From: Okamejei kenojei
Taxonomy: Eukaryota
NCBI GenBank assembly: GCA_035221665.1
Contig: CM069159.1
Span: forward strand, 18,290,001-18,354,000
Direction of reading: 5' to 3'
Length of the DNA stretch: 64,000 nt
Below the pieces are notes generated by a model that did no database searches, was not told where the DNA came from, and saw nothing but the letters and a program-made list of their open reading frames with translations. Every line of letters begins with the position of its first letter. Position 1 is the first letter of the stretch. Of this stretch, positions 15,976 to 58,928 are shown piece by piece. The translations under genes were made by a program, and so were the position numbers.

Positions 15976-17861
15976 CTCTCGATTCCAGCAACCGCAGTTC
16001 CTTCTGTCTCCAGAGTGAGAAATGGTGTGTCTGCAAGCCATTAAAATGTGGTAAAGCAATTTGGAGGCTATTCTCTCCTGTTTATTTACAACAACAAAAA
16101 CGAGGGCAGGATTTGGACCTCAGCTGATGGTGCTGAACATGCAATATGTTCATGAGGACTGTAATTAAATTTTACATGTGAGCAAGGCATGTAGCTCCAC
16201 TGATCAAGGACACGTTTCTCAGCATTAGTTCTGTTAACTATTCACAGATGAAACACCGAGAATCACTGAGACATTTGGAAGGCTAGCAAAGATAATTGTC
16301 CAGATTTTGCAGTCACCTGCAACCACTTACCACCAATCTTGATAACAAAAAGCCTACGCCTACTCTCGGTAATCCTTCCAGCATCAATTTTAATCGAATG
16401 CCGGGAGATTTTCCCACTTGCCCTTTAGTACTGCTATTGTGCATTTAATCGTGTCTGTGTCTTCACTATAGAGAGATAATTTGATGTGATAGATTAGGAA
16501 GATGATTATGTAAAGATAGCAAGTTGATATCAAGATAACACTGACTCCCTGCAGTACATGTCAACAAAATCAAAAATTGAAGTGTTATTTAACAATTCAA
16601 GCAGCAATGTATTGGTCTATTTGCAACACATTTGTCTTTGTTATCATATGTCTGCTCTTTTATCTGTGCTATTCCAGTTCATGTTACTATTCAGAAGGTT
16701 ATAAGTAGTTATTGATACTGTTAAAATTAATGGTTGGGTGACTCACTTTGACCCACTGAACATTATTCTTAGCACTCACCTTATCTGGTGATTGTAGGGC
16801 AGAAATATAAAGTGATTCATTTAAAAGGAGAATAAAAGAAAATTAAAAAGTCAAATCTCTAAGCGACATTGTGAAAAAGTTTAATGTAGTTTTATTTCTA
16901 AGCCCACTCTGCACAAGCATAATCGTAATTACATTTTCACATCCTAATTTTTATTTCAAAGCACCTGTTACTTGCAGAGTTCTATGTAGTTTCGAGTTTC
17001 AATGGAAATAAAGGTCACGATAAGAGTTAAAGTACGTTTATACCATTAATATTTTAAAAAAGTGTGAGTATGTGTTAATTTTCACTGAGGTATCCACTCC
17101 AGCTTAAGGGATAGACTTGATGCATCGGCCCCATGTTAATATAGATGTTCTCCCATGTCAAAGGCATGTAAGCAAAAACATTGGATGTCTATATGTTCAC
17201 GGGCTCCATTTATTCTTAATTATGGTCAATATGGAATGCAAAAAGAAACCAAGTAGGGAAGAGAGTGCATTATTTCCACTTCACCACTTCAGTCACTTAT
17301 TTCTATTCAATCTCTGCACTTCTAAGACTCCAACATAAAATTAAAGATACCTGTAATTCCTTATTTTGCATTGAGTCAGTGGTATGGAGCTATAATGGAG
17401 GAAATTAAAGACAGATCTTTGCAGTCTGCTTAATTAACTTTGCTATTTAGTTGAGATTGGAAGAAGAAAAAAAATGTTTTGCCATTAAAGTTAATAATTA
17501 AGTTAAGTAAAATGCAGGAAGTTTACATTGGAACCATATATCTCCAACACTAGTGAAGTTTGCTGTTAAAGCTTCTTCACTACAGAATCAATTTTCTGCT
17601 GGCAATAGATGATTTATACTGGCAAGCTGGAATCACACACTCACATCCAGGATAGAGTGCTACGCATGCATGCTGCCTGCTAGTAACAAGAATATGATTC
17701 TGTCTCTGAAGAATAAATTACTTAAGTGCCCAAGCAAGATTGTCCAAACATTCACGCTCTGCATTACAAGATCAGTGCTTTAGTATGTTGAACGTTGAGC
17801 TGTTTCAGTGGAGTGAATGTGGAAACCTAGTCAGCACTGCTCTGGTTTTACTTCAATAAGC

Positions 17862-20399: not shown

Positions 20400-20578
20400 A
20401 TGGGACCTGTCCCCGGCTCGCCGCTGACGGGCGTGTACCCCGGCAGGTGGCTGATGTTACTAGCGCTCAGGTTACTTTTCCTTGTACCTGCAGGGGAGCC
20501 TGTCGGCCGCAGTGACAGTAACATCCCCAAAGCAATGGACAACGTGACGGTGAGGCAGGGCGACAACGCCGTACTCAG
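20400..20578 (+). CDS. IgLON-family (neurotrimin/OPCML-like) coding exon 1b: signal peptide plus start of the first Ig domain; gene continues beyond the window
   Basis: ATG at 20400 in near-perfect Kozak context (gccacgATGG). Translation [59 protein letters not shown](R) matches the NTM/OPCML N-terminus [38 protein letters not shown]. It ends at a phase-2 donor CTCAG|GTAGG (GT at 20579) and contains the N-glycosylation sequon NVT. NTM and OPCML cannot be told apart from this exon, so no symbol is given. Confidence 0.93.
20472..20494 (+). promoter_or_regulatory. Internal 3' splice acceptor inside exon 1b, for upstream exon 1a isoforms
   Basis: Polypyrimidine tract TTACTTTTCCTTGTACCTG followed by CAG|G (AG at 20492-20493) gives an 85-nt shared exon 20494-20578. 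This matches the known IgLON 1a/1b architecture. Confidence 0.75.
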
Positions 20579-22434
20579 GTAGGAGAACAACCCCGTCCCT
20601 TTGCATTTCCATGCACTGGGAGCCTTGAATTCAATGTGTAATGCATGAAAAGTTGTACACCTAGTCACTGTCGCCTGTTATTGCTTGCTTATTCTGCGCC
20701 TCGTCTCCTAAGCGGAGTATCTTTATGTATTGTTTTTTTTTTGTGGGAGAGATCTGGTCTCAATGCTGGATTAATATCAGTGGTCGGATGTGCTGGTAAA
20801 TCTCTGCCTGTAAAGGAAGGGATTATCCGCACGTTGCATAGCTATCATTTCCCCGGGAATTCGACTGCAGGCTTGGATATTGCTGGGATTTTATGAGAAG
20901 CGGTTCCGGAACATCGCCTGCCCTGTTTATATACAAGACAAAACTGCGATTTTGCTCACTTTATCTTTCAGCTCCTGACTACGATGGCCGCTGTTTTCCT
21001 TTGATGTTAATGATATTAATTAGTTATCCAGAGCCGCGCGGTGTGTGTGTAAATCTTCCTCTGTTGAGAACTGCTGATTTATTTTCCACTTTTCCCATAT
21101 TCTTGGACAATGCCCAAAGTGCTGTCTGCCGCCTATATTAGCAACTGCGTTGATGCATATATGGGGCTTCTTAAGTTTCTTGAGAGGTTGACATTAGGCG
21201 AGGTGAGGTAAAATTTAAAACAAAAATAGAACTGCCGGCAAGTTTTGAACCGCTGGAGGGGGAACAGGGGCGAAGGCAGAGAGGGGGTCATATTTAAAGA
21301 ATAGCGAGTTGCTTGTAGAACGGAGAAAATGATGTTTGTGGCTTTTATTTTACTGTGTGTTAAGTATTGTTGCACTGTTCTAATGGGTTTTTTCTTTCAG
21401 TTCTAATCCAAAAACGTTACGAGTGCAATGTATTCTTCGCCAGAGAGAATCGGTCAGTCGTTGAGATATTTACTGAAGGCTGCGGTCCTTGATGTTGTAG
21501 TTAGAGAAAACGCTTGGAAATTCATCTCTGTGCGAATAGTATCAATAGGCCAATGTGTGCACATTGCTTGCGCTGTGTTGCCTTGGTGTAGAGCACTCCC
21601 TCTGTTCACTGTTATTGATTTTATTAATGCAATCCTTCTCAGAACAGAGTCATATTGACAGAGGGGTGCCATTCCGATGATAGCGTATCAGGAATATTAT
21701 TATTCTTAAAGTTATGCAATGCTTCCTGTGCTGTGACAGCATGTCATGTTAATGATTTGCATTGATTTGTAGGATATTGGCTCTATAATCGAGGACAAAA
21801 CATTTGACGCGTAATTTTAAGTAGTTTTGCTGATTTTATTTTCAATAGTCACTAAAAAGGTTATACACTGTGACAAACATGGAATTTGTATTCCTATAAA
21901 TCTGATCCAAGTGGACCATTGGCAATTGATTTACCTTTGAAATTACAGCTGCATAATATTTGTGATTATAATGCCACTAATATTTATTGATCATTGGGGA
22001 CTTCTAGGCATGAAAATTATTTAGTTTTTTGATTTATAAAGGGGGAAAAAAAGTACTATAATTTAATTGTTATAGATATTAAATAGGTTCATTGGGATTC
22101 ATATAAAGCTGTTTGATAGCTCTGAATGCATTTATTTTACTTCAGAAGGATATTGATTTCATTGGGGAAAACTTCACGAACATTACATCTGTGACAAACT
22201 CGACAATAAGCAGGAAATGGCTGATTTTATGGTATCAAACCAGAAGAAACATTTTAGATGGGAATTACAGTTTTGTGTTTGATCAACAATCTAACTTTAA
22301 TTATTTTGCTTGCTTAGGAATTGCAATCAATTTCCAGCAATATGTGAATTTAACTTCTCCCACATCATGCAATCATAGGATGTTGATAGCACACAAATGT
22401 TGAAAAACTGTCCATGCAATAATTGTCATATGTG

Positions 22435-27146: not shown

Positions 27147-27247
27147 AATCCAGTCTGAAGAAGGGTCTCGACCCGAAACGTCGCCTATCTCCTTCGCTCC
27201 TTAGATGCTGCTGCACCTGAGTTTCTCCAGCTTTTTGTGTACCCACC
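27147..27247 (+). mobile_element. Young short hammerhead-bearing PLE-derived insertion nested in the Penelope 3' UTR
   Basis: Flanked by the 9-bp direct repeat TTTTATCTC (27138-27146 and 27248-27256). Intact core at 27155-27182. Confidence 0.8.
27153..27185 (+). ncRNA. Minimal type I hammerhead ribozyme motif
   Basis: CTGAAGA, extra A, stem II GGGT-CTCG-ACCC, GAAA, C-GTC. Palindromic ACGT in place of stem III, predicted cleavage after C27182, very short stem I. Confidence 0.65.
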
Positions 27248-33952: not shown

Positions 33953-34393
33953 GCAATTCTAAGCAATATATTTTCTATTTGTAGTAACAATCTAACTCAA
34001 TTTTGTATCCGAAAGGTGTTTTGCAAACATGTTTTGAGAGAATAACAATTCGTAATTCAAAATTAAATGCGATATTATTTTACGTTAGTTTGTGGAATAA
34101 CTGTTCTGCGTCATTACAGCAGTTGTCCATGCATTCCTTCCATATTATTATGGCAGATTTGCAGGTTTTATTCAATTATTGACACATTTATACTGTAGAA
34201 GTTGGAGTGTAGTCAAAAAAATGTCTTTCTTCCGTAGTTATGATATGAATAACACATTATTTCACAAAGTTATCCTGTTTTAATACCCTATTAACCTTCA
34301 AGCACTGTTCCAAGAATTAGCCTTTGTAGTTATAAGAGTCCACCAGCACGTATTTCGCAATGGTACTCTCACAGGTAGTAATTAATGTTCTTT

Positions 34394-34660
34394 GTGTTCA
34401 TGAAGGAACTGCAGATGCTGGAGAATCGAGGGTACACAAAAGGCTGGAGAAACTCAGCGGGTGCAGCAGCATCTAAGGAGCGAAGGAGATAGGCGATGTT
34501 TCGGGTCGAGACCCTTCTTCAGACTGGTCAGGGATCAGGGAAAAGATCCCTGATCCCTGACCGGTCTGAAGAAGGGTCTCGACCCGAAACGTCGCCTATC
34601 TCCTTCGCTCCTTAGATGCTGCTGCACCCGCTGAGTTTTTCCAGCCTTTTGTGTACCCCC
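34394..34660. mobile_element. Young fold-back (inverted) hammerhead-bearing PLE-derived element
   Basis: 112-bp arms 34430-34541 and 34547-34658 with 3 mismatches and a 5-nt loop. 36-bp unpaired tail at 34394-34429. 14-bp direct repeat AATTAATGTTCTTT at 34380-34393 and 34661-34674. Confidence 0.9.
34563..34596 (+). ncRNA. Minimal type I hammerhead ribozyme motif
   Basis: GGT-CTGAAGA-A-GGGT-CTCG-ACCC-GAAA-C-GTC-GCC: intact core, 3-bp stem I (GGT/GCC), predicted cleavage after C34593. Confidence 0.7.
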
Positions 34661-35547
34661 AATTAATGTTCTTTCATCTGTTTTCGATGAGGCTTTGTGA
34701 GTCTTCCAGTGGAACCAGAGCATAAATGAGTCAAGAAACATTGACGTGGTTTGAAACCACATCTGAATCAAACCTGTTTAATTTCCTGCAGGTTCTTCTT
34801 TTGAATATAAAAGTGCTCGTTGGACATGTCGTCTTTGGACATAGCTCATCCTAAGTTTTGCATTATAGCAGGTACATCCTAAAGAACATTCCACACAGCA
34901 GACATTTCACAAGCTCGGATATACATAAATGACAGCTTTGAATTATTTTTAAATAGGATGATCTCCCCTTGTGTGTTTAGAAAACATATTAATATAAATT
35001 ATTTTGAATTCAGCTTTTTTCAGTTTGGTATAATTAAATATTTTTCTATTTTTAGATTCTGCCAGTTAGCACATTGCAATTTTTTTTTTCATGACTGCTG
35101 ATATTTATTGCAGATGGAAGCCATCCAGTATTGCACCCTTCAGTAAACACTGACCACTTTCCCCCGAGCTTCTGTGTCAATCCACCACATTTGATGCCTG
35201 GATGACGAGGAATCTAATAAAGTCAATTTTTTTTCTTGTGTGTTGCTTGATCTTGAGAATTTCATGGGTCACATCGTCCATCTCCAAGACTGCCTGTGTA
35301 ATACTTCATCCAATATCGTTGAAGTTCGCATTGCATCATTTGAAAGTCAATGGCCTGGATTTTACAGTAATAATGGCAAAACTAAAAGTGTTTGCTGTCA
35401 TTATTCTGTACGTACATAGTTTACCAGTTGTGATTGTAACCACAGGCTGGATGTATGGTGCTTCCAATGTTGAAACTCACTCCGGAAATGCTCTTCCAGG
35501 TACGTACTTCTATAATATATTGGTGAGAAGAAAGTGAGGTAAACTTT

Positions 35548-35902: not shown

Positions 35903-36174
35903 TTCAAGATTTCTTTACAACATTTGGGAATTGGTCTGTTTTTTTCAGTAATGGTACTGCTTGAATATGCTGTGTGAAATCCATGTTTTTCCAGGAACAT
36001 TCCTTCTTACTGACCGGGCACTCTGCCACCTTTGTACTCATTGAATTCTTCAACTTCAGATAAACTGCTGTCTCATAATTTCCCATCATGCTAATATCCT
36101 TTTCTCAGTTCCTTTCCATAAATTGTCTCCCATTTGGTCAGCACTCATGTTGCTTATTATGTGTGTTGTATATT

Positions 36175-36965
36175 ATGTGAGGTTATCCACTTTGGTAGCA
36201 ACAACAGGAAGACAGATTACTATCTAAATGGCGTCAAGTTGGGAAAAGGGGAAGTACAACGGGATCTGGGTGTCCTTGTTCATCAGTCTATGAAAGTAAG
36301 CATGCGGGTACAGCAGGCAGTGAAGAAAGCGAATGGCATGTTGGCCTTTATAACAAGAGGAGTTGAGTATAGGAGCAAAGTGGTCCTTCTGCAGTTGTAC
36401 AGGGCCCATGTGAGACCACACATGGCGTATTGTGTGCAGTTTTGCTCCCCTAATGTGAGGAAGGACATTCTTGCTATTGAGGGAGTGCAGCGTAGGTTTA
36501 CAAGGTTAATTCCCGGGATGGCAGGACTGTCGTATGCTGAGAGAATGGAGCGGCTGGGCTTGTACACTCTGCAGTTTAGAAGGATGAGAGGACATCTTAT
36601 TGAAACATATAAGATTGTTAAGGGTTTGGACACGCTAGAGGCAAGAAACATGTTCCCGATGTTGGGGGAGTCCAGAACCAGGGGCCATAGTTTAAGAATA
36701 AGGGGTAAGCCATTTAGAATGTAGATGAGGAAACACTTTTTCTCACAGAGTGGTGAGTGTGGAATTCTCTGCCTCAGGAGGAGGCCAGTTCTCTGGATTT
36801 TTTCAAGAGGGAGCTAGATAGAGCTCTTAAAGATAGCGAAGTCAGGGGATATGGGGAGAAGGCAGGAACGGGGTACTGACGGAGGATGATCAGCCGTGAT
36901 CACATTGAATGGCGGTGCTGGCTCGAAGGGCCGAATGACCTAATCCTGCACCTATTGTCTATTAT
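36175..36965 (+). mobile_element. Young CR1/HER1-type LINE, 5'-truncated (ORF2 C-terminus plus 3' UTR)
   Basis: Open frame CEVIHFG..RDLGVLVH..AVKKANGMLAFI..LYRAHVRPHMAYCVQF..IEGVQRRFTRLIPG..SRTRGHSL, ending in the tail GAAGGGCCGAATG..CCTGCACCTATTGTCTA. Confidence 0.93.
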
Positions 36966-37004: not shown

Positions 37005-37835
37005 CCTTGCACTTCAGATTACACTAAGATAGGTGGTACTGTAGACAGTGAAGATGATTGTCAAGAATTTCAGAGGGATGTTGATCATCTGGGGAAATAG
37101 GCCAAGGAATGGTTAATGGTATTTACTTCAGATACGACTGAGGTGTTGCATTTTGGGGCTGCATACCAGAGCAGGGCCTTTACATTGAGCGGTGAAACCA
37201 TGGGGAGTGTTTTTGAGCAGAGCGATCTCGGAATGCAAGCACAGTTCCCTGAAAGTGGCATTACAGGTAGTGAAAGCTTCATCAGCCAAGGACTTGAGGA
37301 GACTAGTTGGAACATTATGTTACATTTGTACAAGACATTGGCGCAGCCTTACTTGGAGGAGTTTGTTCAGTTTTGGACTCTCTGCTGTAGGAAAGATGCC
37401 ATTTAAGCCAGACAGGGTGCTGAACTGTAAGAGGATTTGGCCAGGGCTTGATATATGGGGAGAGCTTTGGCAATCTAGGACTTTATTCCTTGGAGTGCAG
37501 GAGACTGAGGGGTGATCTAAGGTAGATGCATAAAATCATCAGGGGAATAGAAAGTGAGAATGTACAGAGTATTTTCCCCCAGAGTTGGGGAATTGAGAAC
37601 TAGAGAGCACAGGTTTAAGGTGAGAGTGAAAAGATTGAATAGGAATTTGAGGGGTAACCTTTTCATGCTGAGGCTGGTGGGTATATGGAATGAACTACAA
37701 GAAGCAGTAGTTGACACGGGTACAAAAGAAACATTTATAAGACATTTAGATAGGCACATGGAGCATCTTGGTTGGCAGGGACGAGTCGGGCCAAAGGGCC
37801 TGTTTCCATTCTGTATTACTCTGAGTCTATGTGAC
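37005..37835 (+). mobile_element. Older CR1-type LINE fragment
   Basis: Degenerate DYTKIGG..QRDVD, EVLHFG, LYKTL..P.LE..VQFW, RTREHRFKV, GIWNEL. Confidence 0.85.
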
Positions 37836-37974
37836 TCTGACTTCACCCCTCCCCCCCCCCCCCCCCCCAGCTGTTTTGAAAACTGTTACCTCTTCACTCT
37901 TCCCCCTGACCCAAAATAATGAACTAGTTTCTCTTTCCACAGATGCTGCTTGACTCTCTGTTCTTGAAGCCATT

Positions 37975-55628: not shown

Positions 55629-55737
55629 GATTATTTACAGTAATCCAAGATGGACCTGGATGGGACTATGATATGTGGATGCTCCGATTCAGGTGGCATG
55701 GGAGATGTGCACAAAGGAACACACTTGAGCACTAGAA

Positions 55738-56100
55738 GGATAGTAAAAGACCTGGATAGACTGGATGCGGAGAGGATGTTTCCACTTCTGAGAGAGTCTA
55801 GGACCAGAGGCCATAGCCTCAGAATAAAAGGACATATCTTCAGAAAGGAGATGAGGAGGAATTCCTTTAGTCATGCAGTGGTGAATCTGTGGAATTCATT
55901 ACCACGGATGGCTGTGGAGGCCAAGTCAATGGATATTTTCAAGGCGGAGATTGACAGATTCTTGATTAGTGTGGGTGTCAGTGGTTATGGGGAAAAGGCA
56001 GGAGAATGGGGTTGAGAGCAAAAGATAGATCATCCATGATTGAATGGCAGAGTAGACTTGATGGGCCGAATGCCCTCATTCTGCTCTTGGAATTTATGAA
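55738..56100 (+). mobile_element. CR1/HER1 LINE 3' fragment
   Basis: ORF 55650-56015 contains LDRLDAERMFPL..ESRTRGHSLRIKG..FRKEMRRN.FS..VVNLWNSLP. Confidence 0.88.
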
Positions 56101-57639: not shown

Positions 57640-58246
57640 ACGTCATAAGATCATGTGATAGGAGTAGAATTAGGCCATTCGGCAATTCAAGTCGACTGCC
57701 ATTCAATTATGGCTGATCTATCTCTCTCTCCATTCTCCTGCCTTCTCCCAATCATCTCTCACCCGTACTAATCAAGAATCTATCTGTCTCAGCCTCCACA
57801 CTATTCTGTGGCAAAGAATTCCACAGATTCCGCACCCTCTAACTAAAGAAATTTCTCCTCATCTCCTTCCTAAAAGAACGTCCTTTAATTCTGAGGCTAT
57901 GACCTCTAGTCCTAGACTCTCCCATGAGTGGAAACACCCTCTTCACATCCACTCTATCCAAGCCTTTCATTATTCTGTACATTTCGATGAGGTCTCCACA
58001 CATTCTTCTAAACTCCAGCGCATAAAAGGGGACGGTGCCGCCAAATGCTCATCATATGTTAACCTAATTCCTGGGATCATTCTTGTAAGCCTCCCCTGGA
58101 CCCTCTCCAGAGCCAGCACATCCTTCCTCAGATATGGTGCCCAAAACTGCTCACAATATTCCAAATGCGGCCTGACCAGAGCCTTATAGAGCCTCAGCAT
58201 CACATCTCTGTTTTTGTGTACAAGCCCTCTCAAAATAAATGCTAGC
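57640..58246 (-). mobile_element. CR1/HER1 LINE 3' fragment
   Basis: ORF 57970-58362(-) contains MLAFILRGLVHKNRDVMLRLYKALVRPHLEYCEQFWAPYLRKDVLALERVQGRLTRMIPG. Confidence 0.9.
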
Positions 58247-58348
58247 ATAATAAATGAATGATGTTGTTCTATCACTAACACTGGGATAAAAGCATCAGAC
58301 TTAATGATAGGAATGGTGGGAGGACTACATGTTAAGCAGATCAAGACG

Positions 58349-58928
58349 GTGGGCAGCTTCACTTGGGCAGCTTACAAGTTACAACACAATATTTTGAGTA
58401 TTGATTTTGTTAACTTTAAGTAACCCTTGCTTTCCCTCTCTCTCTGTCTCTCCCCCACCCTTACAAGTCGAGGTATACAAACAGCAACATTAATCAGGAG
58501 GACAGCGAAACTAGTAGGAGAACCTATAGAGCCTCAGCATTACATCTCTGTTTTTGTATACAAGTCCTCTCGATGATTTTATCCCAGTGTTAGTGATAGA
58601 ACAATGACATTAATTTATTATGCTAGCATTTATTTCGAGAGGGCTTGTATACAAAAACAGAGATATAATGCTGAGGCTCTATAAGTTCTCCTACTAGTTT
58701 CGCTGTCCTCCTGATTAATGTTGCTGTATGTATACCTCAACGGCAGCTTCCCCTCAACCAACAATGGACCATAGTACATTTCCTCGATCATTTGCACCCT
58801 TCCATAGCTCTAGTTTCCCTCTCCCCTGATTCTCAGTCTGAGAAAAGGGTCTCTACCCAAAACGCAGCCCATTTCTTCTCTCCAGAGATGCCCACCCCGC
58901 TGAGTTACTCCAGCATTTTGTGTTTATC
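58349..58928 (+). mobile_element. Penelope-like element 3' end containing an internal inverted rearrangement
   Basis: TTGGGCAGCTTACAA..ATTGATTTTGTTAACTTTAAGTAA (LGSLQ..IDF.NFK*), the same UTR as the 27061+ and 49750+ copies, and a terminal repeat at about 58834-58928. Confidence 0.75.

Follow-up and report, generated by a model that had tools for sequence, protein, structure and literature searches.

The window analysed here, a 64,000-nucleotide stretch of the Okamejei kenojei genome, contains an almost perfect hairpin that carries a tail on one side only and lies between two copies of a 14-mer in an intron of an IgLON gene. What kind of event produces such a structure, and does it do anything for the gene that hosts it? 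A preliminary description, made from the letters of the window, gave two 112-bp arms with three mismatches and a 5-nt loop, a one-sided 36-nt tail and a 14-bp target-site duplication, and all of these features were recovered (Table 1). The arms differ at 34449 G/34639 T, 34497 T/34591 G and 34525 T/34563 G, and the window holds exactly two occurrences of the flanking 14-mer, which is not extendable. Two additional C residues (34659-34660), missed by the preliminary description, lie between the right arm and the duplication; among sibling copies, G-runs exceeding the template's three were found at 13 of 60 short ends. The proposed folding check bore out a strong hairpin for the 295-nt region (-252.2 kcal/mol, z = -29.9, 0/200 shuffles equally good), with 112 arm pairs on the + strand (three of them G-U) against 109 on the - strand. 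Short-read contigs of organism A (two samples) cover 26-28 letters of the element from the left and 20 from the right, under the 31-letter bridging rule; the hairpin centre, which is spanned by no short-read contig of these samples, rests on the assembly.

Table 1. Features of the fold-back locus and of the host gene in the window
Feature	Position	Strand	Remarks
Exon of neurotrimin/OPCML-like IgLON gene	20400-20578	+	neurotrimin match E 0.0008; donor GT at 20579
Target-site duplication, left copy, 14 bp	34380-34393		single copy at empty site in organisms B, C and D
PLE tail, 36 nt, distal 3' end of element	34394-34429	- (element sense is - here)	9/30 subfamily copies end here
Left arm, 3' pLTR of Neptune-type PLE, 5'-truncated	34430-34541	-	longer copies continue into 3' UTR, GIY-YIG and RT coding sequence
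Left-arm minimal hammerhead motif, C>T at CpG (34497)	34495-34522	-	palindromic helix-III seed broken
5-nt junction between arms	34542-34546		unique to this locus, not the family's continuation
Right arm, inverted pLTR, ending at short (proximal) end	34547-34658	+	36 nt before tail end
Intact minimal hammerhead core	34566-34593	+	predicted cut after 34593
Two extra C (extra G in cDNA sense) at short end	34659-34660
Target-site duplication, right copy, 14 bp	34661-34674		14 bp is the modal length among siblings

The arm sequence is a common repeat with 27 local matches in the window. Genome-wide, a 35-nt marker of its subfamily matches exactly at 17,749 sites (reversed control, 0), and among the first 30 marker loci most copies extend beyond the turning point of the hairpin, on the left-arm side. 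When translated on the other strand, longer subfamily copies (up to 1.5 kb in those read) contain RT motifs, a CX4CX2C linker, present between RT and EN in L035, L046, L048 and L056, and a GIY-YIG domain, for which the Pfam match (E 0.0013) scores 19.5 bits, under the 22.6-bit cut-off; the element in the window itself has no open reading frame. The same order of RT, CX2-5CxxC linker motif and C-terminal GIY-YIG is described for EN+ Penelope-like elements (PLEs) of the Neptune type in the available text of PMC8557442. The Neptune label rests on this linker, which Nematis shares, and on Neptune being the linker-bearing PLE clade reported in vertebrates (available text of 10.64898/2026.07.22.740005).

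Inverted pLTRs, an optional tail of 30-40 nt at one end and target duplications have been reported for PLE insertions in the parts available of PMC3846280, PMC8557442 and PMC8969392. The locus has the inverted pLTR, the 36-nt tail, the duplication and the sequence features of a minimal hammerhead, and its parent copies encode RT and GIY-YIG. Judged by its sequence, 34380-34674 is the 5'-truncated, head-to-head end (pLTR) of an abundant Neptune-type EN+ PLE. The preliminary reading, a Penelope insertion in which the pLTR is inverted, the tail lies on one side and the target is duplicated, is thus supported, and the longer copies carry RT and GIY-YIG coding sequence. A close parallel is found in Pen2a and other EN+ PLE insertions of Adineta vaga, which share the head-to-head pLTRs, the one-sided 30-40-nt tail, the duplication and the 5' truncation; unlike these, as far as they are described in the text available of PMC3846280, the skate locus has no ORF between the repeats, its arms measure only 112 bp and it belongs to a class of thousands of copies, and its duplication is 14 bp rather than 8-10 bp. 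The Anolis carolinensis element PAc also has two 3' ends about a tail length apart, a pLTR hammerhead and an ATG-opened short frame in the pLTR, but it belongs to the Poseidon clade, not to Neptune, and PMC11167929 treats neither inverted insertions nor target duplications. A non-LTR retrozyme was ruled out, the locus consisting of two copies head to head and not of a tandem array. L076, considered as a tandem full-length pLTR-ORF-pLTR copy, proved to be two truncated copies, and among the copies read there was no intact full-length source element. Elsewhere in the window, 27150-27244 is a second end copy of the same young subfamily (95% identical, with an intact minimal hammerhead on the + strand), fused to the 3' UTR of another subfamily, with a further decayed copy behind it. 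Open frames at 36122-36813, 37551-37919, 55644-56015 and 57674-58371 include stretches similar to the C-terminal region of CR1/L2-type LINE RTs.

Three relatives inform on the history of the insertion. Single contigs of organisms C and D run directly from 34379 to 34661, and a single contig of organism B runs from 34378 to 34663 with three further bases missing; each is an empty site with one 14-mer, and divergence of the flanks from the window sequence is 2.7% in B, 3.6% in C and 3.8% in D. Organism B also lacks about 77 bp of the left flank (window 34236-34312). The insertion is specific to the lineage of organism A, because the empty sites of all three relatives retain one 14-mer; retention of both would have spoken against the preliminary description. 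In both samples of organism A, contigs reach into the element on either side, and one of them belongs to a haplotype that carries additional differences. Among the pieces listed for these samples no empty allele was found, which does not imply fixation.

The preliminary description had called the element young. That it is lineage-specific stands, yet the term is overstated, since two haplotypes carry the insertion and 18 of 98 sibling fold-backs are as diverged between their arms or more so; at 47 of 98 the arms are identical. Measured against the commonest letter in each column, two of the three changes arose in the right arm and one, the CpG change, in the left, at a position (34497) where C is kept in 109 of 110 arms. 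Of 60 siblings, one has the tail variant of this locus; in a sister subfamily that variant is the usual one, as would fit descent from an older source copy. An ATG in the pLTR opens a frame through the tail (34394-34471, - strand) that is closed by a stop in the tail variant of this locus and remains open in the usual variant; as in other PLEs, this ATG may start the element's ORF.

The locus is far from alone. Three search patterns recovered fold-back loci of the subfamily: 2,010 are centred at the 5' edge of the hammerhead, 184 inside that edge and 15 just past it. Two other subfamilies gave 1,024 and 2,171. Any suggestion that this copy is special was therefore too strong, there being more than 2,000 like it in its own subfamily and 21 fold-backs, this one included, in the 264 kb examined of the same gene. 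Such numbers, together with the few junction types that recur (the L085 and L167 groups), could be taken to mean that the hairpin itself is a non-autonomous mobile unit, similar to a MITE or a retrozyme and copied whole. We regard this as highly improbable. All 15 loci with a centre like that of 34380-34674 differ in junction and flanks, which indicates that every insertion builds its hairpin afresh; the junction at 34542-34546 was found once in the genome. Arm lengths of inverted insertions form a continuum up to 1.2 kb. A search for fold-backs centred about 120 nt further in gave one locus, which was left out of the counts. The recurrent junctions mostly share their flanks, that is, they ride in another repeat. 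A fold-back with a templated central insert recurs with a shared flank at L085, L090, L091, L125 and L132 and is one insertion that was carried by another repeat or duplicated. At L007, L010, L012, L013, L017, L020 and L167-L175, a fold-back of a sister subfamily sits inside another, since multiplied repeat, which inflates the count of 1,024 fold-backs for that subfamily. The preliminary claim of a single insertion event is thus upheld by the empty sites in three relatives and by the differing junctions.

To define the ends of the class, 113 fold-back loci were fetched (all 15, the first 50 of the 2,010 and 48 of the 184); 8 duplicates were dropped and 4 could not be classified, leaving 101. 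A clear pattern was observed, with one tailed and one short end in 98 of 101 loci, two tails in one and two short ends in two (p 7e-26 against independent end choice at its most favourable rate). Both loci classed as having two short ends begin inside the tail region, and L125, whose junction is that of L085, is the one pseudo-replicate remaining in the 98. Long inverted pairs followed the same rule in six of seven cases taken from the first 100 matches listed, the seventh being damaged. Among 30 subfamily copies chosen regardless of inversion, 9 stop at the tail end, 19 at the short end 36 nt inward, and 2 are damaged. Exact duplications of 13-17 bp flank 71 of the 98 siblings, with a mode of 14, and 9 have none. 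At one polymorphic column the two arms carry the same letter in 94 of 95 loci (49.6 expected); at a second they do so in 52 of 52 (41.3 expected), and all 77 loci scored for an indel variant are likewise concordant. By these sequence variants, both arms of a fold-back appear to share one source. The arms differ in reach: in 25 of 98 loci the short-end arm goes at least 7 nt deeper into the element than the tailed arm, and in 10 of 98 the reverse holds (p 0.017). In five of six long pairs the short-end arm exceeds its partner by 79-806 nt.

The majority of cDNAs in this family, whether inverted or not, terminate no more than a few bases from the 5' edge of the hammerhead core (window 34522-34526; about 2,000 loci). 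The left arm of the present hairpin is truncated about 15 nt beyond this zone. On the element sense strand the zone consists of a pyrimidine tract followed by YAG and resembles a splice acceptor; in the Penelope element of D. virilis an intron ends at this place, according to the text available of PMC4209133. The zone may mark the start of the transcript, a stop of the RT or a site of splicing. The hammerhead cut site was considered as the cause of the junctions and rejected, since the centres fall mostly at template positions 129-133, on the 5' edge of the core, with 2,010 loci there versus 184 nearer the cut site.

Both outer ends of the insertion are 3' ends of the element, one being the tail end and the other the short end 36 nt inward. 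Read in cDNA sense, each stands behind the 3' end of a 14-mer, as it would if reverse transcription had been primed from the two 3'-OH ends left by a staggered cut. In LINE-1 retrotransposition, such twin priming from both ends of a staggered cut produces an inversion inside a target duplication. The LINE-1 cDNAs cover different parts of the RNA, whereas the arms of 34380-34674 cover the same part and form a palindrome. By a modest margin over an even chance, we favour a model in which twin priming is obligatory and asymmetric: a dimer primes both ends of a 14-bp staggered cut, synthesis from one end is directed to the distal and from the other to the proximal start site of the same RNA, and the proximal RT is ahead. 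The steps are inferred from end products. A dimeric RT-GIY-YIG protein would cut the two DNA strands about 14 bp apart, and the two 3'-OH ends would prime separate cDNAs: synthesis from one end would begin at the distal start site, which produces the tail, and from the other at the proximal site, with a single RNA or RNAs from one source copy as template. Both cDNAs would stop after about 110-150 nt and be joined in head-to-head orientation, needing hardly any homology or none, and gap filling would duplicate the 14 bp; the three arm differences would be later, independent transitions, and the hammerhead an inherited passenger. At this locus, the tail end (34394-34429) would correspond to the distal RT start and the short end of 34547-34658 to the proximal one.

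The Anolis PLE provides a biochemical precedent: in vitro its protein, a predicted dimer, cleaves and extends the two strands, with reverse transcription beginning at two sites that bound the tail (PMC11167929). However, top and bottom strands were not seen to differ in their start sites in vitro (PMC11167929); the rule of one tail and one short end was not reproduced there, and this counts against twin priming.

A different origin of inverted PLE pLTRs has been put forward in the parts available of PMC3846280 and PMC8557442, namely self-priming. Here the tailed cDNA would fold back at a micro-palindrome and copy itself up to the tail boundary, and an endonuclease or a template jump would resolve the product. 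Exactly one tail is then expected naturally, many junctions do lie at short palindromes, and the arms always share source variants, with a few private ones in addition. Under this model the surplus bases found at the short end could have been added without a template before the jump. We nevertheless consider self-priming unlikely for these insertions. One observation against it is the reach of the arms: in 25 of the 98 short insertions and five of the six long ones, the short-end arm holds sequence that is missing from the tailed arm, and a tailed cDNA copying itself cannot give a longer short-end arm, which favours two cDNAs. Later deletions at the palindrome centre could, however, also lengthen either arm relative to the other. 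In addition, several junctions are blunt, zero-loop palindromes (L086, L115), and the short end, the commonest end in copies chosen regardless of inversion (19 of 30), behaves as a start site of its own. Concordance of the arms is equally expected from self-priming or gene conversion, and the junction of 34380-34674 fits either twin priming or self-priming.

The second part of the question concerns function. The preliminary description reported an intact hammerhead core in the right arm and a CpG-type change in the left-arm copy, both of which are as claimed. The core consists of CUGANGA, a bulged A, a 4-bp stem II with a tetraloop, GAAA and a palindromic helix-III seed. Metazoan PLE minimal hammerheads, in the portion available of PMC4209133, share the CUGANGA and GAAA boxes, the bulged base before stem II, the G10.1-C11.1 pair and the loopless palindromic helix-III seed, but their stem I has 4-5 bp compared with 2-3 bp at 34566-34593 (stem II here being 4 bp). 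The same source reports opposite-strand pairs of hammerhead motifs 100-700 bp apart in Schistosoma. It further reports that a PLE minimal hammerhead, lacking helix III beyond the seed, needs a second copy on the same strand, and that single motifs gave no cleavage. The core in the right arm has no helix III beyond the seed and a stem I of at most 3 bp, its fold is not predicted for the right arm alone, and no family reaches the gathering score in an Rfam scan of the 64-kb window. By analogy with the published motifs, the right-arm hammerhead is likely inactive as a monomer. The proposal that a ribozyme is held off by its antisense copy thus loses its footing, as sequestration would lock something that is probably inactive anyway.

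The preliminary description also placed the element in the orientation of the IgLON pre-mRNA, correctly, since the exon at 20400-20578 reads on the + strand and the intron after it contains the element, on the sense strand of the gene. The next Ig-domain exon, located by sequence motifs, lies about 417.6 kb from the window start on the + strand, which makes the intron about 397 kb long. All three arm mismatches become G-U wobbles on the + strand, as had been pointed out, but the meaning attached to this is unsupported: three transitions are all G-U on a named strand by chance in 1 of 8 cases, and the other 20 fold-backs in the examined part of the gene show 54 G-U and 54 A-C on the IgLON strand. 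A G-U bias tied to host transcription was rejected on this equality.

Could the bias instead follow the orientation of the element? On the tail-first strand, G-U exceeded A-C in the discovery set by 34 to 13 (p 0.003; 35:12 in another count). This was not replicated in a second sample of the same subfamily (7 vs 12; pooled p 0.064) or in two other subfamilies (23:22 and 22:21, counts that are noisier and follow too strict a de-duplication, with 47:28 for old copies in the IgLON region). A bias tied to element orientation is unproven. The tail-first excess in the one sample of sibling fold-backs consists of C>T and A>G changes.

These counts bear on the idea that the hairpin acts in the IgLON pre-mRNA, as an ADAR or Dicer substrate or an antisense-locked ribozyme, with selection keeping G-U-compatible changes. 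Its position on the intron sense strand, the 112 uninterrupted pairs it would form and the G-U excess of the discovery set speak for such a role, and action of ADAR or Dicer is plausible for any hairpin of this kind. Reads of runs X16 and X17, which are probably DNA, did not reach the unique sequence on either side of the hairpin. A role of this sort is nonetheless very improbable, given that the insertion is missing in three close relatives, that it is one among 21 fold-backs in 264 kb, that the bias is absent on the gene's strand and failed to replicate on the tail-first strand, and that minimal hammerheads are inactive as monomers in the text available of PMC4209133. No host function is indicated. 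Taken together, these results make it probable that the hairpin arose in one event, the twin-priming insertion of a Neptune-type PLE end, likely without host function, with the arm differences being later transitions and the hammerhead an inherited passenger.

In the literature searched, we found neither a twin-priming account for PLEs nor a description of this PLE family in skates. The hairpin at 34380-34674 is itself ordinary, a neutral, lineage-specific retroposon scar that is useful at most as a presence/absence marker. The class to which it belongs bears on an open question in the PLE papers, the origin of inverted pLTRs and one-sided tails, for which accounts differ: self-priming (PMC3846280, in the part available), resolution by the endonuclease (PMC8557442, likewise in part) and two RT starts with inversions unaddressed (PMC11167929). 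The 98/101 rule and the longer short-end arms provide a sharp prediction for the existing in vitro PLE system. If true, asymmetric twin priming would explain together why the pLTR is inverted, why the tail is one-sided and why the target is duplicated; the thousands of hairpins in this genome would be a census by which it can be tested.
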